A DNA stretch of 64,000 nucleotides. Origin: Thermodesulfobacteriota bacterium (GTDB taxonomy: Bacteria > Desulfobacterota > UBA8473). The stretch spans positions 58,917 through 122,916 of the forward strand of contig JBFLWQ010000001.1 of NCBI GenBank assembly GCA_040757775.1, given 5' to 3'. The translations under genes and the position numbers were made by a program. Positions 7,126-61,663 of this stretch are shown here, in pieces (position 1 is the first letter of the stretch; every line of letters starts with the position of its first letter). Under the pieces are notes generated by a model. That model was not told the DNA's origin. It saw only the letters and a program-made list of their open reading frames with translations, and did no database searches.

Positions 7126-8493
7126 ATGATGCCCGTCAAACCAACCTATGAAGAGTTGGAGCAAAGAATAAAAGAATTAGAAACAGAAGCTATTAAACAT
7201 AAGAATATAGACAGGGCATTTAGGGAGAGTGAAGAACGGTTCCGAACCCTGTCGGAGGCTACTTTTGAAGGAATAGCAATCCATGAAGGGGGTGTACTTC
7301 TTACAGCAAATGAACAATACTTTCGGATGTTTGGGTATGATCCGCAAGAACTGATCGGGCAGCAGGTAATACCATTGACAGTGGCTCCTTTGTCCAGAGA
7401 ATTTATTGAAAAACAGATTAAATCTGGAGTCACAGGATCTCATGAGATTATGGGGCTTAAGAAAGACGGGACAGAGTTTCCGATAGAGACTAATGTGAAG
7501 TCTATGGAATATCAGGGACGTTTGGTCAGGGTAGTAGCAATCAGAAATATTTCTGAACGTAATCGAACCGATAAAGAACTGATAGAGGGCGAAGAGAGAT
7601 ATCGTACAATTTTAGATTCTAATCCTGATCCAGCGGTTATTTATGACATGGATGGCAAAGTAGTCTATCTTAATCCTGCATTTACAAGCGTGTTCGGGTG
7701 GACACAGGAGGAACGTCTGGGGAAAAAAATGGACAACTTTATCCCGGAGGAAGAATGGCCCATACTCCAAAAATTATTCGAAGAAGGCAATACCAATGCA
7801 TGTTTCCTGGATGTCGAGAGTAGAAGATATACCAAGGAAGGTAAAATTCTTGATGTCAGTATAAGCGGAGCATTTTTTAAGGATTCTAAAGGAATGCCGG
7901 CAGGAAGCTATGTTACTTTACGAAACATAACTGAAAATAAGAAGATGGAGAAGGCTTTGCGGGAAAGCGAGGAGAAATTTAGACGTCTTTCCTACATGGA
8001 TGATTTGACAGGTGTGGCAAATCGGCGTTATTTTGAAGAGATCTTTAATGTAGAGTGGGGACGTGGAGCACGTGACAGGTCTCCAATGTCACTGATCATG
8101 TGCGACATCGATTTTTTCAAGGCTTATAATGACAGACTGGGGCATCAAAGTGGTGATGATGCTCTGAAACAGGTAGCAGACTTATTGAGAAGTACGCTCC
8201 GCCGCCCCGGAGACATGGCGGCACGTTATGGCGGTGAGGAATTTGTGGTTGTGCTGCCGGATACGGATAAAAAGGGAGCTGCTCTTGTGGCAGAGCTATT
8301 GCGGGCTAATGTGGAGGTTTCAGGAATTGCACACCCTGACTCACCAATCTGTAAATCAGTAACCATCAGTATAGGGGTTGCCACTACAATCCCAGGTGGT
8401 AGGCATAAACCTGCTTCACTGATTTCAAAAGCAGACCATGCTATGTATCAGGCAAAAAAAGAAGGGCGTAACAGGGTTAAAATATCTGATTAA
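7126..8493 (+). CDS. PAS/PAC sensor diguanylate cyclase (GGDEF)
   Basis: 455 aa; two PAS-like segments followed by a GGDEF domain with active-site RYGGEEF. RBS ggagga lies upstream of the ATG pair at 7126/7129. Confidence 0.8.
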   Translation: MMPVKPTYEELEQRIKELETEAIKHKNIDRAFRESEERFRTLSEATFEGIAIHEGGVLLTANEQYFRMFGYDPQELIGQQVIPLTVAPLSREFIEKQIKSGVTGSHEIMGLKKDGTEFPIETNVKSMEYQGRLVRVVAIRNISERNRTDKELIEGEERYRTILDSNPDPAVIYDMDGKVVYLNPAFTSVFGWTQEERLGKKMDNFIPEEEWPILQKLFEEGNTNACFLDVESRRYTKEGKILDVSISGAFFKDSKGMPAGSYVTLRNITENKKMEKALRESEEKFRRLSYMDDLTGVANRRYFEEIFNVEWGRGARDRSPMSLIMCDIDFFKAYNDRLGHQSGDDALKQVADLLRSTLRRPGDMAARYGGEEFVVVLPDTDKKGAALVAELLRANVEVSGIAHPDSPICKSVTISIGVATTIPGGRHKPASLISKADHAMYQAKKEGRNRVKISD

Positions 8494-8577
8494 CGCGTAG
8501 TTTATAGAGGGCATCGCCACAGGAAACTTCAAACACAGGAACCCTTTGCCTATGGCAGGTCAACTTATATAAAATAT

Positions 8578-8606
8578 TTGACAAACCATATTGAAGGTGT
8601 TAATAA
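8578..8606 (+). promoter_or_regulatory. sigma70-like promoter for the tRNA (TTGACA-17 nt-TAATAA)
   Basis: TTGACA at 8578-8583, 17-nt spacer, TAATAA at 8601-8606, about 28 nt upstream of the tRNA 5' end. Confidence 0.4.
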
Positions 8607-8634
8607 AACATCCTCGAAATCATTAAATAACCGA

Positions 8635-8711
8635 GCCCCCGTAGCTCAGGTGGATAGAGCAAGGGATTCCTAATCCCTGTGCCGCGTGTTCGAGTCACGC
8701 CGGGGGCACCA
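8635..8711 (+). tRNA. tRNA-Arg (anticodon CCT), 77 nt with encoded CCA
   Basis: Cloverleaf read by hand: acceptor GCCCCCG/CGGGGGC, D-arm GCUC/GAGC, anticodon stem AGGGA/UCCCU with loop UUCCUAA (anticodon CCU), T-arm GCGUG-UUCGAGU-CACGC, discriminator A, then CCA. Confidence 0.85.
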
Positions 8712-8763
8712 TCCCATCAATAATTTCCTACGTTTTATTCAATAGTTAGCTTGTTTACCCATT

Positions 8764-8790
8764 TTCCACACTGTTCCACAGAATTCCAAA
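8764..8790 (+). repeat. three direct heptamer repeats at exact 10-bp phasing (TTCCACA, TTCCACA, TTCCAAA)
   Basis: Copies at 8764-8770, 8774-8780 and 8784-8790, about 55 nt 3' of the tRNA. Same-face spacing suggests a protein-binding array. Confidence 0.4.
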
Positions 8791-8890
8791 AAGTCGCATA
8801 TTTTTGACAAAGTTTTGGGTCAGGATTGGGTCAAAAAAATTATGCCTTAAAACCGCCACTGTAATTGTTGAATTAACTGGAAGGAAATTT

Positions 8891-9919
8891 ATGGAGAGAA
8901 CAGTAATTTATTGTCCAAGGGACAAACAGAGAAAGTTTTTGGTGATCTGTATACAAACGTGTAAGTCTAAGTCCGGGTGCGAAAGTATAAGAAATATTTC
9001 TCAAGAAACAATCGACGGAGAGCTGGAGGACTACAAAGGAAAAGAGGAAACTGTCAATGCCGTGAGGCAGGAATGCTCTCTTGAAAAGGATGAAAATGGT
9101 ATCTGCTCTCACCTGTGGGGAATGTCGTCTTGTATTGAAAGAGTAAAGTGCTGTTGTGAGTGTGAAAAGGAATTCTGTAACTCTCGATGTAGCAACTCTG
9201 AACCGAAAAAAGCAACGGTACCTGCCGTGATGGAAAAAGGTACAGATATAGAGAGGTCTGTTTATTGCAAGGAAAAGGCAGAGGAACTTTGCAATCGGAT
9301 CGAGGATAGTTATTATGAGTTGGCAATGATCCTGCGCGAGATTGAGAAGGAACAGTATTACATGAATTGGGGATATTCAGGCTTTGTGGAGTACGTAAAG
9401 GAGTGTTTAGGTTTTAAGGAGCGAAAGGCAAGATATTTGATAGCGATTGCGGATATGTGCCAGCGGTATAATATCACGAAGGATGAAAGAATAGGAATTG
9501 AGTGGTCAAAACTTAAGGAGTTACCTGGAGTAATCAATGAGGAAAATAAAGAAGAATGGCTTGGCAAAGCCCGGGAGAGTACTACAACCAATTTACAGGA
9601 TGAGGTAAGAAAGGCACGTGGGATTAGTCCAGGTGAAATGAAGTCGTTTATTACTTTTTCCCTTGCAGAAGGGCAAAAGCTGGTGGTTGAGAGTGCGTTG
9701 GACCTGGCAGGAAAATTAACTGGATCTGAGGTAAGGTCATATCTTCTTGAGGTCATATGCCAGGAGTTTGTCGGTACCTATATGAATATGGACGAACTTG
9801 CAATTAAAGCATTTGAGAGGTCTCATGGACTACAAGAAGATGAAGTTCCCGAAACAGGGGAAAGTGGTATTAAAAGGTATAGACTACGTGAGGTTCAAAA
9901 GATGGATTCACGAGCGTGA
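8891..9919 (+). CDS. hypothetical Cys-rich protein (first gene of the phage-like region)
   Basis: The track starts at a TTG at 8804; ATG 8891 has RBS ggaaggaaa. The N-terminal half is Cys-rich (CxxC/CCCEC clusters). No integrase motifs are present. Confidence 0.4.
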   Translation: MERTVIYCPRDKQRKFLVICIQTCKSKSGCESIRNISQETIDGELEDYKGKEETVNAVRQECSLEKDENGICSHLWGMSSCIERVKCCCECEKEFCNSRCSNSEPKKATVPAVMEKGTDIERSVYCKEKAEELCNRIEDSYYELAMILREIEKEQYYMNWGYSGFVEYVKECLGFKERKARYLIAIADMCQRYNITKDERIGIEWSKLKELPGVINEENKEEWLGKARESTTTNLQDEVRKARGISPGEMKSFITFSLAEGQKLVVESALDLAGKLTGSEVRSYLLEVICQEFVGTYMNMDELAIKAFERSHGLQEDEVPETGESGIKRYRLREVQKMDSRA

Positions 9920-10130
9920 TAGATGGACGTGTAAAAACCCATTCTGTAGATCGAGAAAGAATCTGACCCTAGCTCATTATGTGCCCAGGTCGAAATTAAG
10001 GCTTGATACACAGGAAAACTGTTACACGCTCTGCGTTGAGTGCCATGAACTCGAGGAGAGAGGAGATCTCATTGTTGAAAAGGTTGGACGTAACATGTAC
10101 CGATTTTGCTATAGAAACAGGAATAAATGA
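9825..10130 (+). CDS. HNH endonuclease (free-standing)
   Basis: CKNPFCRSRKNLTLAHYVPRS...NCYTLCVECHELEE is an HNH/zinc-finger nuclease motif. The start is uncertain (ATG 9825, 9840 or 9903); it overlaps the end of the upstream gene. Confidence 0.55.
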   Translation: MDYKKMKFPKQGKVVLKGIDYVRFKRWIHERDRWTCKNPFCRSRKNLTLAHYVPRSKLRLDTQENCYTLCVECHELEERGDLIVEKVGRNMYRFCYRNRNK

Positions 10131-10230
10131 GATGTAACTTATTGATATTGTTGATATTTTATACTTGACAACCTGATCCCCATTCTGTATAATATCCTCA
10201 TAAATCCATAAAATGTAAGGGAGGGATATA

Positions 10231-11121
10231 ATGGTTAATTTAGAGTTTGGAATGAGCAAGGAAGAGGTTAAAAAGGAACTGCAGGAAGAACAAAAGAAGG
10301 CCAAGTATGAGACGATGGGCTATAACCAAAAAGATGTTATTAGTGCTCTTATAAAGGAAATGAGGCTTGGTAACGTTGAGAATGCTCTATATTGGCTTCA
10401 AGTAACACAAGAAGCAGGAGATAGCTGGTGGTATATAGGCAGAAGACTTCTCATTTTTACGTATGAGGACTGTTTCGGGGTAGAAGCAGCTATCTACTCT
10501 AATGCTGCGTGGCAGGCTCTCAATTTTACGAAAGACTCAGAGAATATCCTCTTTGCCTGGGTAGAAAGGCTGTGTAAGCTCACAAAGTTTTGGGAAGTCG
10601 AGGATGGTCAGGAGAGGGAATGGGCATGGCATCGTGGAAGGAAGGATATAGAAAGTGGTAAGTACAGACCAATTCCATCCTACGCAAAGGATCGTCACTC
10701 CAAATCGGGTTGGGATGAAGTTAAGGCTGGTGGGAGTTTTGATGAGAGGTTTAGCGGAACGCTCAGTGGGCGAATAAATATGATAAAGCAATTTAAGTTG
10801 AATGGTTGTTTACTGTCTGCAAGTTCAAACGAAAGTCCGGAGAAAGAACGTAATGAGAGACCTGACGACATAGAATTGTTTAGTCCAAAGGAAATTAATG
10901 GAAGATATCGTCCTCGCATAGTAGTTGACAATAGACCAGGAATTTACAGCGTTGAAAGTGAAACAACAAATGATGTGACCTATATTGTAGACCTAAACGA
11001 ACCAAGTTGTGAGTGCCCCCACCACCAGACAAGGAAAGCGATATGCAAGCACTTGAGGGCTGTTGATGGAGCGATCAGGAGAAAAGAGCTTGAGGATACA
11101 AGGAAAGGGAGGCTTGTATGA
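10231..11121 (+). CDS. SWIM zinc-finger protein
   Basis: C-terminal CECPHHQTRKAICKHL matches the SWIM CxCxnCxH pattern; RBS aagggaggg precedes the ATG. Confidence 0.5.
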   Translation: MVNLEFGMSKEEVKKELQEEQKKAKYETMGYNQKDVISALIKEMRLGNVENALYWLQVTQEAGDSWWYIGRRLLIFTYEDCFGVEAAIYSNAAWQALNFTKDSENILFAWVERLCKLTKFWEVEDGQEREWAWHRGRKDIESGKYRPIPSYAKDRHSKSGWDEVKAGGSFDERFSGTLSGRINMIKQFKLNGCLLSASSNESPEKERNERPDDIELFSPKEINGRYRPRIVVDNRPGIYSVESETTNDVTYIVDLNEPSCECPHHQTRKAICKHLRAVDGAIRRKELEDTRKGRLV

Positions 11122-11306
11122 GTTATGATGTTGGGATGAAACTTTTTATGAGGTATGGAAAGGATGTACTTGTGCATATGGCTAATCAATATGGTATCTG
11201 TCCAGATGGCTCTAAGAAAGATCTGGCGAAGCGAATAGCACAAGAAGAGGACAAGAGGTTTGATGAAAAGTGGCGCAAGATTATTAAGCCTCACGAAATA
11301 TATTGA
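11118..11306 (+). CDS. hypothetical small protein
   Basis: ATGA start/stop overlap with the upstream gene; 62 aa. Confidence 0.3.
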   Translation: MSYDVGMKLFMRYGKDVLVHMANQYGICPDGSKKDLAKRIAQEEDKRFDEKWRKIIKPHEIY

Positions 11307-11498
11307 TGGTGGAATATTTTTTTTACAAAGAGTACTTAGTAATTTATATGTTACTACCAAGTTGTTGGGAAGCAGAGGGATGTGGGAATGATGACAGACT
11401 CAAGGAGGGCTAACGATAGAGCTAACGCGCCGGAGCGTAGCGGAGGTCGCCGTTGAGCGATTTGTTATGCACGGCCTTTCATTCATTAAGGAGGATTT

Positions 11499-11894
11499 AT
11501 GAAATTGTATGATTATGTTTCAGCCTATGCAGAAAGGGGAGCTTGTACCTGTGGAAGATGCTATGATGCACCAGAGAACCCCGAAGAAACACAACCGGAC
11601 GGCCATACCGTTGACTTGACCTTCTTCAAGGTGGCAGCAAAGGGTGGCGACAAAGACACGTTTTTGTCTTTGGTTCGTGCTGAACATCCCGGCTGGCTGG
11701 ACGGCAAAGAACACAGCTATATTCATGTAGGCGCCGAGATGGGAGATCAGGGGATTGCCTTGATGACGATAGGGCTCGGTCATCTTTTGGGCGCATGGAA
11801 GGCCCTTTCACCGGATACGATGATGCCGTTTCTTCCTTCTGACTTAAAGCAGCAGATGGCAGGACGCGGCATGGTGAGTTTGCAGAGTGCATAA
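11499..11894 (+). CDS. hypothetical protein (locally GC-richer gene)
   Basis: RBS aaggagg + ATG; 131 aa; composition differs from neighbouring genes. Confidence 0.35.
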   Translation: MKLYDYVSAYAERGACTCGRCYDAPENPEETQPDGHTVDLTFFKVAAKGGDKDTFLSLVRAEHPGWLDGKEHSYIHVGAEMGDQGIALMTIGLGHLLGAWKALSPDTMMPFLPSDLKQQMAGRGMVSLQSA

Positions 11895-12109
11895 CAAGGA
11901 GTTAAGTTGCGAGCGAAGCGAGACAATCTTGAACGATTAGTTAGCGTTTGCACTGCCTATGTTAAAAATAAGGATGGTACAGCTATCATCGCAGAATATA
12001 GACTGCAACATGGTTTACGGTTTACATTATATGAAATGAAACAATGGATATTGCAGAATCCTAAAGTTGAAAGCGTGAAATTTTTAAAACGCTAACCAGG
12101 AGTTTAGAC

Positions 12110-12796
12110 ATGACCGAACTGTTTAGGAAATGCATGGTTATTGTCCCTCACTGTGATGACGAATGCATCTCCGTAGCTGGAACGATTGCGAAAATAAAGG
12201 AGGTTGGTGGAGAGGTCTCCGTTATTGTTCTGGTTGCAGGAGATATATTTTTTTGTCACGCGGAGGAGAAGGTGACTGCAGAGACAAGAATCAGAGAGTT
12301 TGAAAATGCTATGAAGTATCTTGGAGTGGATTATTATGATGTTCTGTATCGGACAGGAGACCTAGAGTCTAGGTTGGATACGATTCCGATAAGGGATATT
12401 GTTCACCGAATTGATCGACTGATTGTAGAGCATCAAGCAAGCACTGTGTTTATTCCAAGAAAGTCATTCCACCAGGACCATATCGTAGCTCATCAGGCTG
12501 CCTTCGCTGCTTGTAGACCAAGCCCGGATAAAGCTACACCACGGTATGTTCTGGAACACGAGTATCCGGCTAGCACATGGAATCTGTCTGGAGAAGATAG
12601 TTGGGCAAACTTCTTCGTTGATATAGAGGACTATATCGAAAAAAAAGTGAAGGCAATAGAATACCACCAGTCACAGTTGAGAAGTAATCTCCACACTATA
12701 AGTATTGAAACGTGTGTACTTTGGGCTAAAACAAGAGGGCGAATTGTTGGGATTGAGTACGCCGAAGCGTTTCGGCTATTGAGGTATGTAGGATGA
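12110..12796 (+). CDS. PIG-L/LmbE-family sugar N-deacetylase
   Basis: VIVPHCDDECISVAGTI... (PHxDDE motif) plus HQDHIVAH; RBS aggag. Confidence 0.65.
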   Translation: MTELFRKCMVIVPHCDDECISVAGTIAKIKEVGGEVSVIVLVAGDIFFCHAEEKVTAETRIREFENAMKYLGVDYYDVLYRTGDLESRLDTIPIRDIVHRIDRLIVEHQASTVFIPRKSFHQDHIVAHQAAFAACRPSPDKATPRYVLEHEYPASTWNLSGEDSWANFFVDIEDYIEKKVKAIEYHQSQLRSNLHTISIETCVLWAKTRGRIVGIEYAEAFRLLRYVG

Positions 12797-13479
12797 GGGT
12801 AACCATAAATCAGCCGTTGTTTTTTCAGAGATTGCACATGTTTAATCGTATTGCGGAATGCGATATCGCAGTGGTACTTCATTCCGCACAATTCGTGAGG
12901 AATGGAGACCAGCCTAAGCTGTTTCTGAAGTCTGCAAACCGTTTGCAGGAAATGAAGGTCCCTACCCTTCACGACGGAAGACAGTCAATAAAAGATACCA
13001 GGATTGATTACGGTCAGCAGTGGCAAAGAAAGATGATAAGGACAATAGAAATGAATTATGGAAAAACACCCTTCTTCTCTACCTACTTCGATGCGATTAA
13101 AAAGATTATATGTCAAACATACGCCTCTATAGGCGAATTAAACATTGCAACCCTCAGGTATGGCATGGCGGTCCTTGGCATCGACGTTAAGCTTGTACTA
13201 GATGATGAGCTTGATATTGATCCGTATGACAATCCGTCAGATTGGATGTTAAATATCTGCAAGGCACTCCACGCAACTGAATACCATTGTGGGAAGGTTG
13301 CTGCTGACAAGTACCTGGATTACGACAGGTTTCGTAAGGTAGGAATAAAGGTTTTTCCACAGGACTGGACAGCACGGGAGTACGAACAACCGTATAAGCC
13401 GTTTATTGGGAATCTGTCTGTAATTGACCTGCTGATGAATGTTGGCGGAGGAGATGCAGGAAAGGAGATGTTAAGGTGA
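12793..13479 (+). CDS. WbqC-like family protein (O-antigen-cluster associated)
   Basis: MRVTINQPLFFQRLHMFNRIAECDIAVVLHSAQF matches the WbqC-like N-terminus; ATGA overlap with the upstream gene. Confidence 0.55.
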   Translation: MRVTINQPLFFQRLHMFNRIAECDIAVVLHSAQFVRNGDQPKLFLKSANRLQEMKVPTLHDGRQSIKDTRIDYGQQWQRKMIRTIEMNYGKTPFFSTYFDAIKKIICQTYASIGELNIATLRYGMAVLGIDVKLVLDDELDIDPYDNPSDWMLNICKALHATEYHCGKVAADKYLDYDRFRKVGIKVFPQDWTAREYEQPYKPFIGNLSVIDLLMNVGGGDAGKEMLR

Positions 13480-14069
13480 ATAAATCGTGGGATATAGGAT
13501 ACTTGTATGATGAGGTCTTTGAAAAGGAAGGAGATAGCTACAAGTCACTGTTGTGGGGAGGACAGAACCGACAGTTTGTAACGTATAGGACAATCTGTCA
13601 GGAGATCGATTTCAACGGTACTTCGATATTGGATGTCGGCTGTGGATTTGGTGACTTCTACGAGTTTTTGTATGAAAGGACTGGATGGTTGAAACGGTAT
13701 GTAGGGATAGACATTAAAAAGGAGTTTGTGGATATTGCCCGAAAACGATACTGTACAGGCCCGGAGTTAATGTTTGCCTGCTGTGATATTGACTCAATGC
13801 CTAAAGTAAAGGTTGATTATGCCCTTGCGATAGGAACGCTGGCAACGAAAGATATATTTGATGATTTGATACCTAAAATGTGGAAGATCGCCGATCTTGG
13901 AATCGTTTTTACGTGCCTGAGTGATATAGATTATAAAGGATCACTGGTTTCGTACCATCCCGACAGGATCCTTGCGACCTGTTTTGTGCTGTCACCCCAT
14001 GTGGTAATGAGGCATGATTATGGGGAACAGGAAGCAACCTTTTTTGTATTTAGAAAAGAAAGACGTTAG
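13476..14069 (+). CDS. class I SAM-dependent methyltransferase
   Basis: Motif I ILDVGCGFGDF; GTGA start/stop overlap (GTG start). Confidence 0.6.
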   Translation: MNKSWDIGYLYDEVFEKEGDSYKSLLWGGQNRQFVTYRTICQEIDFNGTSILDVGCGFGDFYEFLYERTGWLKRYVGIDIKKEFVDIARKRYCTGPELMFACCDIDSMPKVKVDYALAIGTLATKDIFDDLIPKMWKIADLGIVFTCLSDIDYKGSLVSYHPDRILATCFVLSPHVVMRHDYGEQEATFFVFRKERR

Positions 14070-14287
14070 TCAAAACAAGCTTACAAAAGGGAAAAACATT
14101 GTTTATACGTGTATTTTATGATGGAAAAGAAACTCGATATTGAAACAAATAGACAAAAACTACTGATTTTTTGTAATATTTAATAATATCAAGCACTTAA
14201 GGAACGCACACAATCGCCTACAATGATTTTTTTTATCGAACCTCTTATTATCCCATTCACTGGATACGACTTGAGGAGGTAAACTGA

Positions 14288-14881
14288 ATGGAAGTGATCA
14301 CAGCACCGCCAAGGGCATCTAGTAGGACGGCAGTTTTTCAGAAGATGTTTGATATATGCAAGTCTGTAAAAGCGGCAGGACCTTACCTGATTGTTGAGAT
14401 AGGAACATTCAGGGGAGATTTTGAGGGAGATGGAGGCAGCACTTATTTTTTTGCTAAGTGGCTTTCTGAAAATGGAGGTGGGAAACTTCACAGCGTAGAC
14501 AATAACCCACAAGCAATTGAGATTTCCAGAAACGTATGCAAAGAATTTGATCGGTACATTGAATGGCACAACATGAGGTCTGAGGATTTTTTGAGAACAT
14601 TTCATGAGCATATTGACATGGTTTACCTCGATAGTATCGGATGGCGTAAGGATGGTGTAGATCAGTTTACGTGCCAGTATCAGCATTTGAAGGACTGGAT
14701 GCTTGTAAAGGATCGGTTGAATGGAGCGTTAGGGATTGATGATACCGATGGACTAAAGTATGGAAAAGGAGCGCAGATTGTAGCGTATTTGAACGGGAAA
14801 GGAGTGCCATGGCAGACCGTATACTGTGTCGAGCATGGAAAATGGCCTTGTGGAGTGGTTGCGGAATGGAGGTATAGATGA
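14288..14881 (+). CDS. SAM-dependent O-methyltransferase-like (family 3/TylF-like)
   Basis: LIVEIGTFRGD ... MVYLDS resembles class I O-methyltransferase motifs; RBS gaggagg. Confidence 0.45.
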   Translation: MEVITAPPRASSRTAVFQKMFDICKSVKAAGPYLIVEIGTFRGDFEGDGGSTYFFAKWLSENGGGKLHSVDNNPQAIEISRNVCKEFDRYIEWHNMRSEDFLRTFHEHIDMVYLDSIGWRKDGVDQFTCQYQHLKDWMLVKDRLNGALGIDDTDGLKYGKGAQIVAYLNGKGVPWQTVYCVEHGKWPCGVVAEWRYR

Positions 14882-15078
14882 GGAGAATAAGGAGGATAGA
14901 GATGAAAAGCAAAGATTCAAAAAGAAAGGTCTCAAAAATGATTAAGCCAAAGTTTCGGAAGTATCAGGAGCTTACAGTTGAACAACGAACTGATCCTGAT
15001 TATCGGGTAAAGGAGTTAATGAAGCTCAGTGGAGATGAATCCTTCATTGGATGTACCAAGTGCCATCATTGCCGATAG
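14878..15078 (+). CDS. small basic hypothetical protein
   Basis: 66 aa, Lys/Arg-rich, C-terminal CTKCHHC. Confidence 0.25.
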   Translation: MRRIRRIEMKSKDSKRKVSKMIKPKFRKYQELTVEQRTDPDYRVKELMKLSGDESFIGCTKCHHCR

Positions 15079-15098
15079 AGAAAAGGAAGATGAACTAA

Positions 15099-16535
15099 GT
15101 GAGACTGTTGCTAGTGCCCCATACAGGGCTAAGAAATATCCATAGCGACTCGAACTATCTGTTGTTTCTGGACCTGGCTCGTTACCTTACCGAAAGTGGT
15201 CATTGGTGCTACATGCTGGTACCAGGCTTTGCTAAAGAAAAGGTATACAGAATGAAAAGGTTGATGTACGTATTCCATGACTTCATTCGATATGATTATT
15301 ACACGGCATACAATCTGATCGATGAGGATTGGTTGATAAAGACGTTTTCGAGAAGGTATGGGAGCGAGATCATAGATGCGATTATCACATCTAAAGCATC
15401 AGTTGTCCCACAGTGGCAGGCGATCCTTTCTGATTATGTACGGTGCAGGGATATTGAGTGTTGTATAATTGAACCAGGAGTTTTCGACCGGGAAAGTGGT
15501 GGAGCATTACGTGGGGACATCGGACTTGCACTGATGAGTCTTGGCTATTCTCAAGCAACGACAGTATTTTTGACCGAGTACGAGAGGGAGCGGGCAAAGA
15601 AACTTGCGTCGGAGTATGTATCGGCTGCACGTATCAAGAAGATCCACGAACAGGCAGTTGTGAGGTCTGTTGGAATCGATACTGAATATATTGATAAGAA
15701 GACTGAAGGGATCACAAGAGCGAAAAAATTCACACTCATATATGCGGCTAGGCTAAATTCGGTGAAGAAACCGGATAGGATTCTGGAGCTGTATGACACG
15801 ATGTACCGGAGCGGAAGGAATGTGAATATCGTTGTAACTACCGGGACTCAGCAGCTTCCTGTCAAACGACGTATGGATAAAATTCTGAAAGGAAGACCTG
15901 AAATTGTGGTTCATTACGGATGTCCAAAGGATGACTACCTTAAGATTGCCAAATCAGCTCATGCTTTCGTATGCTGGAGTGAATCGGAAGGCTTCCCTGT
16001 AGGGTATTACGAGCAGATGTATTTAGGCGCGGTAGGAATTTTCCCCAAAAAGAAGTGGGCTTTGAAGCAGTTGCCGCCTGAGTATAAATGGATGTTCTCG
16101 AGAAAAGAAGAAGCATACTCGATGCTCATGGAGATATACGACCACTATGACAAGATTTCGCAGGAAATGGATTGGATGAAGGAATTCATTGCCAAAAGTT
16201 ATGGATATAGAGAGGTATATTCGATACTCGAAAAGGCAGTATCTGGCAGGTTGAAATTGAAGAACTCGTATATCAGGCCGAATGGAATCAGGCAACTGCT
16301 CGACACGATTGTCCCAAGTCTACCGGATGAGTTCAGCCTCGATCTGGTAATCAGGTCTCTCGGCAAATACGGCAGGTGCTTTCTTGAAGACAGGTATGCG
16401 AGAGGAGGAACGTTCAGGTATCCGTCTGACTATGATATCCACCGAATGTTGACGGATGAATATGGATGTATCGACCTGTGCAATAGAAACAGACCAGTTT
16501 ATAGAAAAGGAGACATATATGGCAAGAAAGGCTAA
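15099..16535 (+). CDS. GT-B fold glycosyltransferase-like protein (GT4-like)
   Basis: 478 aa; an E-x7-E motif near the C-terminal lobe (SESEGFPVGYYEQ); GTG start. Confidence 0.4.
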   Translation: MRLLLVPHTGLRNIHSDSNYLLFLDLARYLTESGHWCYMLVPGFAKEKVYRMKRLMYVFHDFIRYDYYTAYNLIDEDWLIKTFSRRYGSEIIDAIITSKASVVPQWQAILSDYVRCRDIECCIIEPGVFDRESGGALRGDIGLALMSLGYSQATTVFLTEYERERAKKLASEYVSAARIKKIHEQAVVRSVGIDTEYIDKKTEGITRAKKFTLIYAARLNSVKKPDRILELYDTMYRSGRNVNIVVTTGTQQLPVKRRMDKILKGRPEIVVHYGCPKDDYLKIAKSAHAFVCWSESEGFPVGYYEQMYLGAVGIFPKKKWALKQLPPEYKWMFSRKEEAYSMLMEIYDHYDKISQEMDWMKEFIAKSYGYREVYSILEKAVSGRLKLKNSYIRPNGIRQLLDTIVPSLPDEFSLDLVIRSLGKYGRCFLEDRYARGGTFRYPSDYDIHRMLTDEYGCIDLCNRNRPVYRKGDIYGKKG

Positions 16536-17286
16536 AAAGGATAACGAGACTCCTGTTGGAAAGATAGATCATCCCCATCCAGAGACGATATTGATAGATG
16601 TCGGCATGATAGACAGAGCTGAGTGGAACCCTAACGTAATGAAGGACAGAAAGTTTAATAAACTGGTTGAACAGATTAGGGAAGTGGGGATTCTCGAAAA
16701 TATTGTGGTGAGAAAAACTGAGAAGGATAGGTATGAGGTGGTAAGCGGACATTGGAGATATGATGCTGCGAAAGTCGCAGGTTATGAAAAAGTCCCATGT
16801 GTTATAAGAGAAGATTGGGATGATGATAAAGCAAAGATACAGAATATGAGGTTTAATGTCCTCAAAGGAGATATAGACCCGCTCAAGTTCAGTAAGATGT
16901 GGGACGACATAGCGAAGAGCTATGATAATGAAGAGCTTAAGGCGTTGATGGGATTTGTGGAAGACAGAGAATTTGAGAGACTGTATATTGACATCAAAAA
17001 ATCGTTACCAGACGAAGTAGCTGGTAAGCTTGATAAGGCTAAGAATGAAATCAAGACAGTAGACGATCTGTCCAATATCGTTAACGAGTTGTTTACGAAG
17101 CACGGAGATACATTGGACAGGTCATATATGATATTCAGCTATGGAGGCAAGGAGCATCTGTATATTGTGATGGGCAAGGAGTTACGAAAGAAAATGGAGT
17201 TTGTGAAGGAAAAAAGCTCTGCGGAGGATAGGGATATTAACGAAGTAATGCTTGAAATGATGAGGGACGGAGGAACTGGACAATGA
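16519..17286 (+). CDS. ParB-like nuclease domain protein
   Basis: ATG 16519 with RBS aaaggag (the track's 16456 start lies inside the upstream gene). ILIDVGMIDRAEWNPN...VVSGHWRYDAAKVAGYEKVPCVIRE matches the ParB/Srx N-domain. Confidence 0.55.
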   Translation: MARKAKKDNETPVGKIDHPHPETILIDVGMIDRAEWNPNVMKDRKFNKLVEQIREVGILENIVVRKTEKDRYEVVSGHWRYDAAKVAGYEKVPCVIREDWDDDKAKIQNMRFNVLKGDIDPLKFSKMWDDIAKSYDNEELKALMGFVEDREFERLYIDIKKSLPDEVAGKLDKAKNEIKTVDDLSNIVNELFTKHGDTLDRSYMIFSYGGKEHLYIVMGKELRKKMEFVKEKSSAEDRDINEVMLEMMRDGGTGQ

Positions 17287-17480
17287 ACTGGATATATTTT
17301 GTGGTTTCGTTATGTATTGCTTTTGTGCTGGGAGGTGTCGTTGAATGGTTGACTGGAGGAGAGAGGTACTGTCCGAACTGCAGAAGCAGGATGACGTCAT
17401 ACTGTCCAGAATGTCTGAAGGATAGGATAATAAAAGGACAGATCAGGAGGAAGCAGGAGAAAATAGAAGAGGAGAAGTAG
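17283..17480 (+). CDS. small membrane protein with zinc ribbon
   Basis: One TM helix followed by CPNC...CPEC. Confidence 0.3.
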   Translation: MNWIYFVVSLCIAFVLGGVVEWLTGGERYCPNCRSRMTSYCPECLKDRIIKGQIRRKQEKIEEEK

Positions 17481-17482
17481 GC

Positions 17483-17659
17483 ATGGACATCGACAGAGCG
17501 GAAAGGATAATCCACTACCTTGAGGACTTCACCGAACAGATGAGCAAGTGGGAACAGAAGTTTTATGCAAACATGTGCAGAAGAGTAGAGGAACTGAATC
17601 AGGAGCCTACCGATGCACAGATGGGTGCACTTGAACGACTCTATGATAGGTTTCTATAA
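17483..17659 (+). CDS. hypothetical small protein (not in ORF track)
   Basis: MDIDRAERIIHYLEDF...; 58 aa; tightly packed between neighbours. Confidence 0.25.
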   Translation: MDIDRAERIIHYLEDFTEQMSKWEQKFYANMCRRVEELNQEPTDAQMGALERLYDRFL

Positions 17660-17668
17660 GACAGTAAA

Positions 17669-18280
17669 ATGGCAAGAAAACGTAAAAAAAGGAAGAAGTA
17701 CAAAAGTTTTGTAAGGCTGAAAAAGTTGAAGTGTTTTTCTGAGGTTGACGTTCGTTTGCGTTGTGGAGCATCGCCAGAAAAGGTAGCCAGTTTTATCCAG
17801 CAGGAAATGAATGAATACGAAGACGTTAAATGGGTGTCGCTTGTCAGGCAACTGTACAAGTACAAGAAATCGATACCTGTAACCCAGGTTCTTAGCCCAA
17901 CGTATATTGATAGAGCGGTAAAACAGATAGAGATGTACATAGATATTGCCAATGATGAAGCAAAGTTGATTCAGTACCAGAAAATAAGATTAGCGTACTA
18001 CGGACAAAGAGAAGAAGTCATGAACGTACCCATTCACGAACAAAGTCGGAATATCGAATTGCTTGCGAATCTGTTGAAACAGCATCGGGATACGCTAATC
18101 GAGCTAGGAATCGTCAAGAGACAGCCAATTGAAATCGAAGAGAGGGTTGCTGGAAGGCTTGAACTTGAGCACAAGCATAAGCTATCGCCCCAAGAGACTC
18201 AAAGAGTGACATCAGAGGCACGAAAACTTCTGAAGTTATTAAAGGGTGGTAAGGATGAACGTGAGAGAAATACCGCCTAG
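17669..18280 (+). CDS. putative terminase small subunit
   Basis: 203 aa, basic N-terminus (MARKRKKRKKYK). Sits immediately upstream of and overlapping the large terminase; assigned on position only. Confidence 0.3.
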   Translation: MARKRKKRKKYKSFVRLKKLKCFSEVDVRLRCGASPEKVASFIQQEMNEYEDVKWVSLVRQLYKYKKSIPVTQVLSPTYIDRAVKQIEMYIDIANDEAKLIQYQKIRLAYYGQREEVMNVPIHEQSRNIELLANLLKQHRDTLIELGIVKRQPIEIEERVAGRLELEHKHKLSPQETQRVTSEARKLLKLLKGGKDERERNTA

Positions 18281-20186
18281 TTATGAATACGCTGTAACTG
18301 AGACACTGGCGAATCTGAGGTCAGAACAAGAGAAGGAATACCTCATCAAAATTCTTGAAGAGGTATCGACGAGGGGTGAGTCGCAAACACTTCATGAGCT
18401 GGAGGAAATAAAGTACATTGAGCGACCGGTTGACATTGAGACATTCGTAACAGAACCGTATTATCTCGGTACCCATGGCGTTGACCTCTATCCAAAGCTG
18501 AAGGATGATCTTATTGAGTTGTTTGAAGGAAAGTATAATATAGTTATTTTAAGTGGTTCTATTGGCTGGGGAAAGGACTTCTTTACGTCATTTGTAATTT
18601 CGAGGCTTCTGTATGAGGTAAGTTGTCTAAGAAACCCGCAGAGAACGTATGGCTTGGCACAGGATTCGTCCCTTGTCTTTTTGAATCTCTCCATCAATGC
18701 TACAAAGGCTAGAAAGGTACTGTTTAAGGAAATTGCTACGAAGATAAAAGCATCCCAATACTTTAAGGAAAAGTTTCCGTATGAATCGCACATCATGTCT
18801 GAACTGCGCTTCCCGAAGGATGTTAGAGTTGAGCCCGGTAACTCTCTTGAGACGTCGATTATAGGAGAGAACGTATTCGGGACGGCAATCGATGAGGTCA
18901 ACTTCATGGCTTATGTAGAAGGTAGCAAAATGGCCAGAGGCAGGAAGGTTTATGACCAGGCTGAACTGTTGTTTAGTGCTGCACAGAGGAGAATGAAATC
19001 CAGACTGCCACTTGGGGACCCACCAGGCATGTTGATTGCTCTCTCGTCTAAGCAGTACCCGGATGATTTTATCGAACGTAAAAAAGATGAGTTAAGAGAC
19101 GACCCAAAGGTGTTTGTTAGAGAATATGCAGAATGGGAGACCAAACCTGCTTCGAGGTATTTAGGTAAAACGTTTAAGGTGGAGGTATCTGGCAGGCATG
19201 GTATGTCGAGGGTCCTTGTTGGAAATGAAGAGAACATTGAAGGTAAGGTAATAGATGTTCCGATTGAATATAGGCACGACTTTGAAACTGATCTTGAAGG
19301 ATCGATCAGGGATATTGCAGGAATTTCTGTCCTTTCGGTGGAGCCGTTTATTATGCAACGAAATAAGATATATGACTGCATTCAGAATGAGAGAGAGCAC
19401 CCCTTCACCATGGTAGAAAGCACGCTACAGGACGGTGGAAGTATAAGGCGTGAAATATTGTGTGAGCATGATGAGGAACTGGGAAGGTGGACGCCAAGGA
19501 TGAATCCTGAAGCACGACGGTTTATTCATATTGATCCGTCTTTGTCTGGAGATGCGACCGGTTTCGCAATGGGCCATGTTTATAAGTATGTGAATGTGGT
19601 TAGAACTGGAAGGGTCAGACAACCTAATGAGGATGAGCAGGAATCTAGTAGGTCTGAGATTCACGTTGAGTTTGCCCCTGTCATCTATATTGATTTTATG
19701 CTGCGGATCATCCCACCGCCTGGTGGGGAAATTATACTTGGTGATGTAAGGACTCTCGTATATGAACTGAGCGTTCTTGGGTTCAAGATACATACGGTAA
19801 GCCTTGATTCCTTTCAGTCAGCGGACAGCCTTCAGCAGCTTGGACAAAAAGGTTATAATACCGAATTGCTAAGTGTTGATACTGATATTACCCCATACTC
19901 AATGACGAAAATGGCATTGTATGAGGATCGGTTGATGCTCTACAACTATGAGTGGGTGAGATATGGAAGAACGTATGGTATTGTTGAGGAGTTGAAGAGG
20001 CTAGAACATAATAAGAAGAAAAGGAAGGTAGATCACCCTGCCCAGTATTGGAAGGATCTCGGAGATTCGCTTGCTGGTGTGGTGTATCATTGCGAAACGA
20101 AACGTCACGATGAACCAGTTGGGCCAAGTAAGGGGTACACCGATGATGAGAGAGGAGTAGAGTTCCTTGAAAGAAAGCATAGATAG
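18255..20186 (+). CDS. terminase large subunit
   Basis: About 640 aa; ATPase Walker-A-like ILSGSIGWGKD near the N-terminus and nuclease-like acidic residues in the C-terminal half. Followed downstream by the portal gene. Confidence 0.6.
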   Translation: MNVREIPPSYEYAVTETLANLRSEQEKEYLIKILEEVSTRGESQTLHELEEIKYIERPVDIETFVTEPYYLGTHGVDLYPKLKDDLIELFEGKYNIVILSGSIGWGKDFFTSFVISRLLYEVSCLRNPQRTYGLAQDSSLVFLNLSINATKARKVLFKEIATKIKASQYFKEKFPYESHIMSELRFPKDVRVEPGNSLETSIIGENVFGTAIDEVNFMAYVEGSKMARGRKVYDQAELLFSAAQRRMKSRLPLGDPPGMLIALSSKQYPDDFIERKKDELRDDPKVFVREYAEWETKPASRYLGKTFKVEVSGRHGMSRVLVGNEENIEGKVIDVPIEYRHDFETDLEGSIRDIAGISVLSVEPFIMQRNKIYDCIQNEREHPFTMVESTLQDGGSIRREILCEHDEELGRWTPRMNPEARRFIHIDPSLSGDATGFAMGHVYKYVNVVRTGRVRQPNEDEQESSRSEIHVEFAPVIYIDFMLRIIPPPGGEIILGDVRTLVYELSVLGFKIHTVSLDSFQSADSLQQLGQKGYNTELLSVDTDITPYSMTKMALYEDRLMLYNYEWVRYGRTYGIVEELKRLEHNKKKRKVDHPAQYWKDLGDSLAGVVYHCETKRHDEPVGPSKGYTDDERGVEFLERKHR

Positions 20187-21088: not shown

Positions 21089-21122
21089 CCAAAGGACTTG
21101 TTGTCCTTTGGCTTTTCTGTTT
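21089..21122 (+). terminator. rho-independent terminator-like hairpin
   Basis: CCAAAGGAC-ttgtt-GTCCTTTGG (perfect 9-bp stem) followed by CTTTTCTGTTT. The track's TTG start for the portal (21108) lies inside this hairpin. Confidence 0.45.
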
Positions 21123-21137
21123 GAAAGGTACTCAGGC

Positions 21138-24100
21138 ATGTGGTTGATAGATAGAATTACTGATCTTCTGACGAAGGCCAAGTACGATCCGTCCGGAGTT
21201 GATGGTCCTGGAACTACGAGAACTGGTAATGAGCAGAACGGATGGTATTATAATCTGATAAAGCTCGAGGAGACACGAAAGGCACGATACAAAGATTATG
21301 ACACGATGGATGATGAGTTCCCGGAAATATCCTGTGTTACAGGAGACACAATAGTTCACTGTTTAGATGGAGATTTTACGATTAAGGAATTGACAGAGAA
21401 CAAGAAAGATGAAATGTTCTTGGTTTACAGTTGCGATGGGAATAGAATAGTTTTTGATGAAGCGTATGCTCCACGACTCTCAGGTAGAAAAGTAAAAGTT
21501 ATTCGCGTAAGGTACAGAAGCAACAACCGATGGACCCATGAACTACGAGTTACTGGCGACCATAAATTTATGATGAGGGACGGTAGCATGAAAATGGCTG
21601 GAAAGTTAAGGTCAGGAGATAGCCTAATGCCGTTCAACGCTCAGTATGTAAATGATAGGCGGGTCATTAAAGATTTGGATGGTAGGAAGGTCTATGCGTC
21701 CCATCTGGTATTTGAGCAATACGCCAATAGAGCAGTTGATCTTGGCAAAGTGATTCACCACATTGATGGGAACCGGAGAAACGACAATCCACTAAATTTG
21801 CATGAATTATCGCTTGAAGAACATTGCCGTAAGCATAGCATGGGGAATCAGCATACATTGGGAATGATATGGAACGATGATACTGAACGAGTGGAAAAGC
21901 ATAGAAAGCGGATGCTTGGGAATAAGCATAAAAAGGGGAAGGCCAATAGTATAGAAACACGAATGAAGATGAGGAAAGCTCATGCTGAAAGACGACTGCT
22001 AGGGCTAAAACGAAACAGAGAATATGGAAAGCCATGGAACAAGATACAAATTACGCCGGAAGATTTGGTAAATGCTGTTGAAAGAACGAATGATTATAGA
22101 GAAGCAAGCGAACTGTTAGGAATTTCAGTTCCTGTGTTTTTCAGGCGTGTGAAGGATTTTGGTTTAAGGGGAGCTGTTGATTATAATCATGTGGTAGTAG
22201 GTATCGAAGATGGAGGGTTTGAGGATGTTTATGATTTGACGACACGGCGTACTCATAAGTTTGCTGCGAATCACCTAATTATATCGAATTCGAGTATCGA
22301 TATATATTCAGACAATGCGACACAGTCGGTTGATGGAACGCATGAGTCGTTTTGGATAGAATCCGAAGACCAGAAAGTAAAGGATGTTCTGACCAGGATT
22401 AACGAGGAGACTGGACTGCAAGATTCGATTTGGTCTATTGGGCGAAATCTGGTTAAGTATGGAGATGATTTTGAGGAAATAGTATTAAACTCAAGTATGT
22501 TCGTAGTAGATATAAAAGGATTGCCCTGTGAGCAGATGTACAGGAATGAGGATGAATACGGCAGGTTGCTAGAGGATGGTGCGTTCACGCAGAGAGACGT
22601 AAGCACAAACAAGGAGCTTGCAGAGTTTAAGAGCTGGCAGATCGTCCATTTCAGAAATGTGGTGAAGAGAGGGACGAAATACGGGAGGAGTTTACTGTAT
22701 CCTGCAAGAAAGGTATTCAAACAGTTACAGATGATGGAAGACGGTATGGTGATTGCGAGGCTGACCAGGAGCAACATGAGGTACAAGTGGAAAATCGATG
22801 TCGGCAATATGTCTGCAAATGAGGCACGTACATTCCTGAGAGATGTCAAGATGGAGCTCAGAAAGAAGCGCGTTATTGACCCTGCTACGGGCAAGTTTAA
22901 ACTGACCGATAATCCATTAAAAGATGAGGAAGATTTTTTTGTGGCTGTAAGGGATGGATCTCCGGCTGACGTTGATGCCATACAAGGTTCTGCAACGCTT
23001 GGTACTATTGGTGATGTAGAGTATTTTCAGAATAAGCTGTTTTCGATGCTGAAGGTACCGAAGGCGTATCTTGGATTGGAGAGAGATGTGAATGCTAAAT
23101 GTTTGGCTGGCGATACCCCGATATGTCTTGCAAATGGGAAAGATATGCCGATTCGTGAATTAGTAAAGCTTTATAGTAATGGGCAAAGGTTTTACGTGTA
23201 TTCATGCCGTAGAGATGGTGAGATAGTAATAGCAGAAGCACATTCCCCAAGGATAACAAGAAGAAATGCCGAAATGGTAAAAGTGACGCTCGATAGTGGG
23301 GTGAGCTTCAGGTGTACACCTGACCATCCGATAATGTTGCGCTCAGGTTCTTTTTGTCAGGCGAAAGATATTAAGAATGGCACAAGCATTATGCCTTTGT
23401 ATAGAAAGATCTCCGAGAAACCTGAGAATAGTATTAGCGGATACGAGTTACATAGAAATCCACGAACGGGCCAATGGAGATATACGCATAGGCTTGTTGG
23501 AAGACATCTTCCCAGGCCGATCGGTGAAAAGCGTTGGGTCATGCACCATGTTGATTTTGATAAGAGAAATAACTCGCCAGACAACCTTGTTCTCATGACG
23601 TGGGACGATCATGTAAAGCTACACATGGCTTTTGTAGCGTTGTTGCATACCGAAGAAGTTAAGAAGCGTAGCAGAGAGGGCGTTTTGAAATCTGCAAAAT
23701 TCAAAAAAAGACTGTTGAGCATGAATAGCAGCCTTTGGAAGAGAGCGAAGTCTAGCAAGACATTGAGACGATTGTATGCTGAAGGCGTTATGAATGTAAA
23801 GGGTGTCCTAAATCCAAGATACAGAAAGGATGTCACGGTTGAAAGTATAGCGAATGCAGCTCGAGAAGCAAAATGTTCATCTGCAAAAGAGATACAAGAA
23901 AAAACTGGAATTAATTATTCGTTGTTAAGAAGACGACTTGACAAGTTGGGACTAAGTTATCAAGAGTTTGCAGATAAAGTTTTGGAAGCGGGGTATAGAA
24001 AAACTGGATGGCATCGCCCTGACTTAAGTCTTGAAAAAATAGGTGAAGCCATCGCTTCCTTCGCAACAGTAAAAGAGGCAGCAGAAAAATTAGGTGTTAA

Positions 24101-31007: not shown

Positions 31008-31041
31008 GTGGGTTAAATAACGAAAGAAAAAAGGGGGAAGT

Positions 31042-31239: not shown

Positions 31240-31242
31240 AAT

Positions 31243-59043: not shown

Positions 59044-59061
59044 GAATAATTGGAGAATAAA

Positions 59062-59731: not shown

Positions 59732-59760
59732 GCAGGAAAGTGAAGGAGGTTAGGATAGCT

Positions 59761-61636: not shown

Positions 61637-61663
61637 TTGTAAAGGACATGGGGTGGTGGATTA

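Follow-up and report, generated by a model that had tools for sequence, protein, structure and literature searches.

A conserved glycosyltransferase-ParB gene module with amino-sugar tailoring genes in a phage region of a Thermodesulfobacteriota assembly, and its possible action on phage DNA

Two groups of described systems are among those closest to the genes analysed here. The first comprises phage systems that place sugars on DNA, of which the T4 alpha/beta-glucosyltransferases, the 5-hydroxymethylcytosine (5hmC) clusters (Pyle et al. 2023, 10.1101/2023.12.21.572611) and the arabinosyl-5-hydroxycytosine (5hoC) system (PMC13326640) were compared; in the 5hmC work, phage glycosyltransferases put hexose, N-acetylhexosamine (HexNAc) and heptose on 5hmC, some of the enzymes have folds that resemble BshA/MshA, and genes for ParB, terminase, epimerase and (O-)methyltransferase lie nearby. 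The second comprises the pathways of bacillithiol (BshA-BshB-BshC with NmbA) and mycothiol (MshA-MshB-MshC-MshD) and the eukaryotic PIG-A/PIG-L. Here we describe a gene cassette at positions 12110–16535 of a 64,000-nucleotide stretch of DNA from a Thermodesulfobacteriota bacterium (assembly GCA_040757775.1, contig JBFLWQ010000001.1, positions 58,917–122,916); this whole stretch is called the window below. The cassette belongs to a real phage module that is conserved and had not been characterised; the module is a variant of the phage sugar-modification systems, and its core is a glycosyltransferase gene found together with a ParB-like gene in all 16 non-redundant loci in which the linkage was assessed. 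The genes of the cassette and its downstream neighbours are:

12110–12796, + strand: PIG-L/LmbE-family zinc de-N-acetylase, BshB/MshB-like (Pfam PF02585, E=1.4e-19)
12793–13479, + strand: WbqC-family protein, 228 amino acids (PF08889, E=4.9e-47)
13476–14069, + strand: class I S-adenosylmethionine (SAM)-dependent methyltransferase (Methyltransf_25/31/11, with Methyltransf_25 at 1.1e-10; motif VGCGFGDF)
14288–14881, + strand: second SAM methyltransferase (Methyltransf_24, PF13578, 1.5e-9; C-terminal part of phrog_24975, 1.4e-18)
14878–15078, + strand: small basic open reading frame (ORF) of 66 amino acids, net charge +11, between the second methyltransferase and the glycosyltransferase
15099–16535, + strand: retaining GT4-type glycosyltransferase with GT-B fold, 478 amino acids (Glycos_transf_1, 3.5e-8; phrog_30253 'glycosyltransferase', 2.3e-30)
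16519–17286, + strand: divergent ParB/Srx N-domain protein (ParB_N, 3.1e-16; phrog_26387, 7e-63)
17669–18280, + strand: small-terminase-like gene
18246–20186, + strand: large terminase (matches annotated Vibrio, Rhodobacter and Agrobacterium phage terminases at 1e-83 to 1e-102)

The glycosyltransferase belongs to a family of at least 240 cluster representatives at E≤1e-30 (590 at E≤1e-10; clusters at 50% identity). Nearly all members are 450–510 amino acids long and are matched over their full length; the larger ones carry intein insertions and no informative domain fusions. Loci were surveyed (L numbers below) on metagenomic contigs, on IMG/VR contigs and in the isolate phages vB_VpS_PG28 (Vibrio), Kitkat (Arthrobacter), RcTiptonus (Rhodobacter) and JP1 (Agrobacterium); the first of these, referred to as PG28, is locus L008, with the module at record positions 7711–13718. 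When the survey was seeded with the glycosyltransferase, a gene for a ParB-N-domain protein of one subfamily was found downstream in 13 of 13 non-redundant loci, either overlapping the glycosyltransferase gene by 8–26 nucleotides or lying 1–3 genes away. The reverse search, seeded with ParB, gave three more loci, each of them with a member of the glycosyltransferase family, so that the linkage held in 16/16 non-redundant loci when approached from both sides. The overlap of 8–26 nucleotides was seen in the window, L001, L005, L015 and PG28; the ParB start at 16519 overlaps the stop codon of the window glycosyltransferase by 17 nucleotides. The terminases, portals and capsids of the 16 linked loci are unrelated, and the hosts range from Actinobacteria to Vibrio. 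Judged from these gene arrangements, the ParB gene at 16519–17286 appears to be the obligate partner of the glycosyltransferase, and the glycosyltransferase would be the core enzyme of a conserved phage module, translationally coupled to ParB. A tblastn search with divergent family members added neither another isolate phage nor one whose DNA is known to be modified. Inteins were observed in members of both families elsewhere (L015, 11410–13557; proteins P0118 and P0165); they would be odd in accessory genes, which suggests that the ParB and glycosyltransferase proteins are conserved and important.

The order glycosyltransferase, ParB, small and large terminase recurs in phages of Vibrio, Arthrobacter, Rhodobacter and Agrobacterium and in metagenomic phages. 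An earlier note on this DNA, made without database searches, had called the placement of the cassette unusual; it is a conserved position of the module in phages. In L005, L014 and L015 the pair lies among genes for RecA, RuvC, a DnaC-like protein, endonuclease VII and DNA polymerase A, with no adjoining terminase. The cassette itself precedes the terminase; some relatives have it inside replication modules.

The same note had reported five co-oriented genes between 12110 and 16535, with packaging genes behind them. The five genes, their coordinates on the + strand and their motifs were recovered as described, and Pfam searches bear out the PIG-L, WbqC, two methyltransferase and Glycos_transf_1 assignments; the label 'TylF-like' for the second methyltransferase has only a generic Methyltransf_24 match behind it. 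Downstream, the ParB-like, small-terminase-like and large terminase genes follow as listed. As a unit, the interval 12110–16535 is too narrow: the module also takes in ParB at 16519–17286 and a MgsA_C/SWIM gene at 10231–11121 (see below). Adjacent genes overlap by 4 nucleotides, except for a 219-nucleotide AT-rich gap (14070–14287) and a 20-nucleotide gap before the glycosyltransferase, and a GGAGG-type ribosome-binding site is present at every cassette gene start. All cassette products are soluble, no 19-residue hydropathy window reaching the transmembrane range. Compared to the closest relative, L001, the stretch 14070–15098 (the AT-rich gap, the Methyltransf_24 gene and the 66-residue ORF) is an insertion, the two genes being peculiar to this phage; L001 has no second methyltransferase and its first methyltransferase directly overlaps the glycosyltransferase. 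The 66-residue ORF matched no Pfam or PHROG family. Relatives of the first methyltransferase were found by phmmer in L001, L013 and L016, and PG28 has a methyltransferase-fold gene (Pfam) at the equivalent position; the enzyme at 13476–14069 is a recurrent member of the module.

The glycosyltransferase was examined by alignment and by structure modelling. In an alignment of 50 sequences R218 and E305 are invariant and K223 and E297 are at least 90% conserved; the E-x7-E motif that had been noticed in the 478-residue protein is E297-x7-E305, with both glutamates conserved in the family. These four residues would fit the nucleotide-sugar site of GT4 enzymes. The AlphaFold2 model (predicted local distance difference test score, pLDDT, 84) gave BshA as the best Foldseek match in the PDB (8.9e-13, 12% identity), followed by MshA, PimA and sucrose-phosphate synthase; no BshA model of NCBIfam was matched at the sequence level. 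Beyond the GT-B core the protein carries a family-specific, conserved C-terminal helical domain of ∼110 amino acids, which includes R435, Y445 and G456.

The two metal-site motifs of the deacetylase, PHCDDE and HQDH, are both present and intact. Its nearest solved structures are diacetylchitobiose deacetylase (1.6e-11) and BshB (1.3e-4), and it scored 59.4 bits against the NCBIfam equivalog BshB2 (TIGR04000, cut-off 195) and 57.4 against BshB1 (TIGR04001, cut-off 182.5), both below threshold; by these scores it appears to belong to the PIG-L superfamily only, short of a BshB equivalog. The structure model of the WbqC protein is nearest to BshC and the class I aminoacyl-tRNA synthetases. From this fold, and from the finding that WbqC never occurs without PIG-L, the protein at 12793–13479 is a putative ligase that would use ATP to couple an amino acid to an amino sugar. 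By these comparisons, the three enzymes would correspond one to one to BshA/BshB/BshC and MshA/MshB/MshC. WbqC takes its name from the E. coli O121 O-antigen cluster, and to our knowledge no biochemical activity of WbqC itself has been demonstrated. That cluster carries wbq genes (WbqG), and the O121 O-antigen contains an amide-linked N-acetylglycine on an amino sugar (N-acetylglycyl-Qui4N; PMC7685785), which by analogy fits a role of WbqC as amino-acid ligase. Deacetylation followed by amino-acid transfer onto the sugar amine is also the established route to the Wbp/Vim linking sugar (PMC7468200). Both resemble the proposed chemistry in that an amino acid is amide-linked to an amino sugar once the amine is exposed; unlike the module, they make cell-surface glycans on nucleotide- or lipid-linked sugars.

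We consider it rather probable that the reactions run from N-acetylglucosamine (GlcNAc) transfer through de-N-acetylation and amino-acid ligation to methylation; this order fits the occurrence of WbqC only with PIG-L, the glycine-ligase-like ATP-grasp enzymes in relatives and the N-acetylglycine of O121. The last step would parallel the formation of N-methyl-bacillithiol. The module appears to share with the bacillithiol and mycothiol pathways the enzyme folds, in the same logical order, of a retaining GT4 GlcNAc-transferase, a PIG-L/LmbE zinc deacetylase, a ligase of class I aminoacyl-tRNA synthetase type and an optional SAM methyltransferase. It differs from them in that the phage transferase comes with an additional C-terminal domain and with a partner of ParB type and in that the module is phage-borne, beside the terminase; the enzymes are not orthologous to those of the bacillithiol pathway, with scores far under the equivalog cut-offs, and the phage WbqC has 228 amino acids against ∼540 in BshC. 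The module would seem to work like the bacillithiol pathway; it is not counted as a member because none of its enzymes reaches the Bsh equivalog thresholds. The enzyme set fits the BshA/BshB/BshC pattern, where one decorated sugar is built on an acceptor, and does not resemble a polysaccharide pathway. The chemistry that had been proposed from the sequence alone, in its outline of a sugar that is de-acetylated and methylated, is supported.

The tailoring genes vary around the fixed glycosyltransferase-ParB core. PIG-L is present in 8 of the 16 loci and WbqC in 6, each time together with PIG-L (PG28 has two WbqC paralogues); a Methyltransf_25-type enzyme was found in 5 loci, a GARS-type ATP-grasp ligase in 4, and NAD-dependent epimerases and glycosyltransferase paralogues in several. 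In Kitkat, RcTiptonus, JP1, L005, L014 and L015 the core pair has neither deacetylase nor ligase with it. For every cassette gene, the closest relatives lie on phage contigs with an identical gene order. The module has cultured carriers among phages of Vibrio, Arthrobacter and Rhodobacter: PG28, V-YDF132 and VH2_2019 of Vibrio have the full module, Kitkat and RcTiptonus the core pair. Published descriptions of PG28 and V-YDF132 list the PIG-L deacetylase as an endolysin or lysis protein and name its ParB neighbour a 'nucleoid occlusion protein'; seen in context, the two are parts of the glycosyltransferase module.

Of the clues to the target of the pathway, the ParB partner tells the most. Compared to M. 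xanthus ParB (7bnk), the window protein has Q52->N, E93->H, R94->W and R130->G, with R95 retained. Among the glycosyltransferase-linked ParBs, Q52->N and R95 were found in 17/17, and at position 93 six have H, seven have E and four have some other residue. Phage ParB-like proteins with Q52->N, E93->D/H and an unconserved R130 are required for the activity of one class of DNA thymine dioxygenases (O'Toole et al. 2025, 10.1101/2025.08.14.668559), and the window protein has this residue pattern (N, H and G at 52, 93 and 130). In the same survey, glycosyltransferases, ParBs and terminases are the commonest neighbours of phage thymine dioxygenases. ParBc genes were reported in 1,660 contigs with DNA carboxymethyltransferase (Yang et al., PMC12783734). 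The module resembles these clade E 5mYOX-ParB and ParBc-CmoX clusters in having a divergent ParB/Srx N-domain, with Q52->N and an altered GERR box, beside an enzyme that possibly needs ParB; it differs from them in that the partner is a glycosyltransferase and not a dioxygenase or methyltransferase. The likeness to the phage DNA sugar-hypermodification clusters lies in the phage GT-B transferase with BshA/MshA-like fold and in the ParB-like, terminase, epimerase and methyltransferase neighbours.

The residue deviations of ParB, the published ParB/glycosyltransferase neighbourhoods and the position of the pair among replication and recombination genes in L005, L014 and L015 make phage DNA the likeliest acceptor. 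To the reading that the cassette is a new DNA hypermodification pathway, acting most likely on the phage's own DNA, we assign a probability of roughly 40%. Going by fold and motifs, the glycosyltransferase would move HexNAc, most likely GlcNAc from UDP-GlcNAc, onto an acceptor hydroxyl. The PIG-L/LmbE enzyme, given its family, its intact metal site and its strict co-occurrence, would then strip the N-acetyl group to leave a free amine; WbqC may activate an amino acid with ATP and ligate it to this amine, as its fold and its constant company with PIG-L suggest; and one or two SAM methyltransferases would methylate the product. The ParB partner, on the strength of the gene association and the published precedent, would bring the transferase to the DNA, or switch it on there, shortly before packaging, and the outcome would be a hypermodified base, bulky and cationic, by which host nucleases are blocked. 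We are more doubtful about a specific version of this scheme, in which a ParB-type nucleotide switch guides the GT4 enzyme along the DNA and GlcNAc is converted into aminoacylated, methylated glucosamine on a handle that does not come from a known TET/JBP or thymidylate-synthase-type enzyme.

A number of findings weigh against DNA as the target. The main objection is the missing maker of a hydroxylated base, because O-glycosylation of DNA needs such a base. In the window from 8.8 to 64 kb, no TET/JBP, ThyA/ThyX-type hydroxymethylase or C5 methyltransferase was found with Pfam (TET_JBP, Thymidylat_synt, Thy1, DNA_methylase) in a scan of all called, non-overlapping + strand ORFs of at least 38 amino acids, including concatenated small ORFs. 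The neighbours of the glycosyltransferase in L001, L005, L006, L014, L015 and PG28 likewise showed no acceptor-making enzyme by Pfam, and ThyX was found in only two of the related loci, L004 and L013. No adjacent clade E 5mYOX or thymidine-hypermodification genes (AADT, P-loop kinase, GATase) were found in the window or the related loci. A carboxymethyl handle of the CmoA/CmoX type was considered and rejected, as a C5 methyltransferase is missing and the CmoA model gave no match with the first methyltransferase. The 'Serglycin' matches obtained in the small-ORF scan are artefacts of GS linkers. Unlike the DNA sugar-hypermodification clusters, the module has no linked 5mYOX/C5-methyltransferase pair or thymidylate-synthase homologue, and it includes deacetylase and aminoacyl-ligase steps that are undescribed for DNA glycans.

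The proteins themselves add to these objections. The glycosyltransferase has no recognisable DNA-binding domain, and the median net charge of its family, taken as a proxy for DNA binding, is 0, that is, the family is not systematically basic. Many of the linked ParB relatives (P0023-P0036) are strongly acidic, with net charges of −14 to −44 over ∼250–300 residues, unlike what a DNA-binding clamp should show. We know of no DNA modification pathway that involves PIG-L or WbqC enzymes. The family motifs and the words 'deacetylase' and 'WbqC' are absent from the supplementary tables of the published DNA-glycosyltransferase survey (10.1101/2023.12.21.572611). ParB-terminase adjacency is common in phages, and the linkage could in part reflect shared position and not function. 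Finally, the AlphaFold2 models were built on shallow alignments of 12 and 7 sequences.

Among the other targets, virion proteins come next in probability. The window contains a second set of sugar genes:

29594–34389, + strand: second sugar cassette (GT9, weak GT1, Methyltransf_11, GT9), set in between head and neck genes immediately behind the major capsid gene

The sugar could be attached to capsid, portal or tail proteins, perhaps jointly with this GT9/GT1/methyltransferase set, as in mycobacteriophage virions. GT4 enzymes are capable of protein O-GlcNAcylation, the first cassette opens the co-oriented array of packaging and structural genes, and glycosyltransferases stand among the head genes of the same phage, right after the major capsid protein. 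Virion glycosylation by sets of glycosyltransferases and O-methyltransferases is documented for mycobacteriophages; the second cassette is similar to these phage sets in placement, beside the capsid gene, whereas the first cassette differs from them in its deacetylase, ligase and ParB partner and in its place with DNA-handling genes. An obligate, translationally coupled ParB would have no role in virion glycosylation, and in L005, L014 and L015 the pair lies amid replication and recombination genes, distant from the structural genes. PG28 has the first cassette, and no relatives of the second-cassette enzymes were found in the loci of the first, including the ∼68 kb of PG28 that were examined. 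We regard virion proteins as an unlikely target of the first cassette.

The earlier note had joined the two cassettes into a single near-complete pathway. Its tally for the whole phage stands, with glycosyltransferases starting at 15099, 29594, 31857 and 33457, methyltransferases of the small-molecule type at 13476, 14288 and 32837, and one deacetylase, but no functional tie between the two sets was found, as the PG28 comparison illustrates, and one combined pathway is not supported. The genes at 29594–34389 are treated as a separate unit, which probably serves virion glycosylation.

A step further down in probability is a soluble product, such as an aminoacyl-glucosaminide, a bacillithiol- or mycothiol-like compound or another metabolite with an auxiliary metabolic or anti-defence function, with the ParB/Srx protein acting as a nucleotide-dependent enzyme. 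This would account for the one-to-one match of three enzymes to the BshA/BshB/BshC and MshA/MshB/MshC folds, for a SAM methyltransferase that would parallel N-methyl-bacillithiol formation and for the lack of a DNA acceptor-making enzyme, and the ParB/Srx fold does include small-molecule kinases. The window ParB, however, matches free serine kinase only weakly (E=0.012) and fits true ParB CTPase domains far better (1e-9). The Bsh scores far under the equivalog cut-offs, a WbqC of less than half the length of BshC, the six loci in which the core pair occurs without deacetylase or ligase, and hosts that differ in their low-molecular-weight thiols all argue in the same direction, and we judge a small-molecule pathway improbable.

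Modification of a host cell-surface glycan, for lysogenic conversion or superinfection exclusion, is very improbable. The cassette lies 1.5–8.5 kb from the tRNA-Arg junction described below, a typical location for cargo, and WbqC and GT4 families are common in O-antigen clusters according to the Pfam description. The checks proposed in the earlier note, on host S-layer/O-antigen clusters and on lysogenic expression, point to this reading. Against it, the cassette encodes no membrane-spanning protein, flippase, polyprenol-linked enzyme or acyltransferase, its genes share the orientation of the packaging genes and overlap with them, the module is also present in phages described as lytic (PG28 and V-YDF132), and the ParB coupling would be left without explanation. 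Host-envelope modification is thus disfavoured by soluble products, by lytic carriers and by the fusion of the genes into the packaging operon.

That the genes are ordinary chromosomal sugar genes between mobile elements, or come from a chimeric assembly, is effectively refuted by synteny: the source contig is from a metagenome-assembled genome (MAG) and no integrase or att repeat was found in the window, but from 8.8 kb the phage genes follow one another without a break in a single orientation and at uniform GC and GC skew, the nearest relatives of all cassette genes lie on phage contigs in the same order, and the module occurs in sequenced phage isolates.

In the searchable literature, no phage set resembling BshA/BshB/BshC, no glycosyltransferase-ParB unit and no biochemical role for WbqC was found described. 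If DNA is indeed the target, amino-sugar chemistry (deacetylation and amino-acid ligation) would be added to the phage DNA hypermodifications as new chemistry, and the role of phage ParBs would extend from dioxygenases to glycosyltransferases. The WbqC family (PF08889) would gain a testable activity, as an amino-acid ligase related to BshC, which bears on the aminoacyl sugars of O-antigens. The published 'lysis enzyme' annotation of the deacetylase is corrected for therapeutic-candidate Vibrio phages, which possibly have modified DNA; this would affect their sequencing, cloning, restriction and CRISPR sensitivity. Should a protein or a metabolite turn out to be the target, the glycosyltransferase-ParB pair, conserved in 16/16 loci of unrelated phages, remains an unexplained functional unit. 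The cultured carrier phages make the module directly testable.

The genomic setting upstream of the cassette was analysed as well, and its features are:

8635–8711: tRNA-Arg(CCT), which marks the host/phage junction
8804–9919, + strand: Cys-rich protein, 371 amino acids (phrog_17202, 1.1e-27)
10165–10193, + strand: promoter-like site with perfect sigma-70 consensus, TTGACA-17-TATAAT, the sole 12/12 match in 8500–18400
10231–11121, + strand: MgsA_C/SWIM protein (RarA/MgsA C-terminal-like domain with C-terminal SWIM zinc finger)
11118–12095, + strand: three small ORFs (11118–11306, 11499–11894 and 11907–12095) between the MgsA_C gene and the deacetylase

Up to ∼8.5 kb the window contains host genes, for a response-regulator/phosphofructokinase fusion, UbiA, a class IV aminotransferase, a chorismate-binding protein, a GATase and a GGDEF protein. 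From 8.8 kb onwards, an unbroken, co-oriented phage gene array follows with constant GC and strongly positive GC skew. The cassette region is a prophage, or a phage contig binned with the Thermodesulfobacteriota MAG; its phage context, which had been proposed before, is confirmed by this uninterrupted block and by the same cassette in bona fide isolates. No integrase and no second copy of the tRNA 3' end were seen in the window. The GC skew collapses after ∼62 kb, and minus-strand ORFs start there (62–64 kb). The phage may run past the window, because no DNA polymerase was seen within it. The right-most ORF of the window, run against GTDB genomes and JGI metagenomes, gave relatives at 26–37% identity only, megablast of 12–20.2 kb against phage records gave no match, and a single-protein scan of IMG/VR with WbqC gave no relatives.

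The promoter-like site lies 38 nucleotides 5' of the start codon at 10231, and about 0.004 perfect TTGACA-17-TATAAT sites are expected by chance in the scanned stretch; from its sequence, it is a likely start of the module's transcription unit. The MgsA_C/SWIM gene is a conserved accessory that belongs to the module, and it is counted in the unit because homologues sit within the cassette of other phages (L004, L006, L008, L013, L016 and L020; in Kitkat ∼5 kb upstream). Its Pfam matches (MgsA_C 5e-5, SWIM 2e-3) are both under the gathering cut-offs; the family profile matches the RarA/MgsA C-domain structures 3ctd (3.4e-12) and 3pvs (2.3e-6). The RarA/MgsA C-terminal-like protein was found in 8 loci, with the SWIM finger added in the window copy. 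The Cys-rich protein at 8804–9919 is a possible accessory of the module: in L014 and L015 a homologue stands directly 5' of the glycosyltransferase, and in L005 and PG28 one lies close by. The family gave no informative Pfam match, and its profile was likewise uninformative against the PDB. The three small ORFs of 11118–12095 matched nothing in Pfam, PHROG or NCBIfam and had no relatives in the related loci.

The remainder of the phage array encodes an intein-bearing T4-like portal, an S77 prohead protease, a gp23-like capsid protein, a tape-measure protein, a sliding clamp, RadC and other accessories. The portal gene (21108–24752, PF07230) encodes 1214 amino acids owing to insertions of Intein_splicing and HNH_3 type, which look like two inteins or homing-endonuclease inserts. 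Within the second sugar cassette, the stretch 30624–31860 between the first GT9 and the weak GT1 holds ORFs of ∼129 (with one hydrophobic N-terminal segment), 65 and 205 amino acids that matched no family; the minus-strand ORF at 31095–31727, present in the list of longest ORFs, is probably spurious. After the tail genes, an ORF at 45968–46336 resembles S-adenosylmethionine decarboxylase (PF02675, E=1.8e-12). A polyamine aminopropyltransferase is encoded in PG28 and another in a published 5hmC-HexNAc cluster, and the decarboxylase-like ORF may be linked to aminopropyl chemistry. A MoxR-type AAA+ ATPase gene (53021–55138) is split by a LAGLIDADG/Hom_end segment, probably an intein, and with the VWA and DUF6744 genes that follow it makes up a MoxR-VWA set inside the phage. 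The region 57967–63002 contains a DnaN-like sliding clamp, a RadC-like JAB protein, a DUF4942/MTS methyltransferase at 60062–61636, probably a DNA methyltransferase, and a small SymE-toxin-like ORF at 61664–61843.

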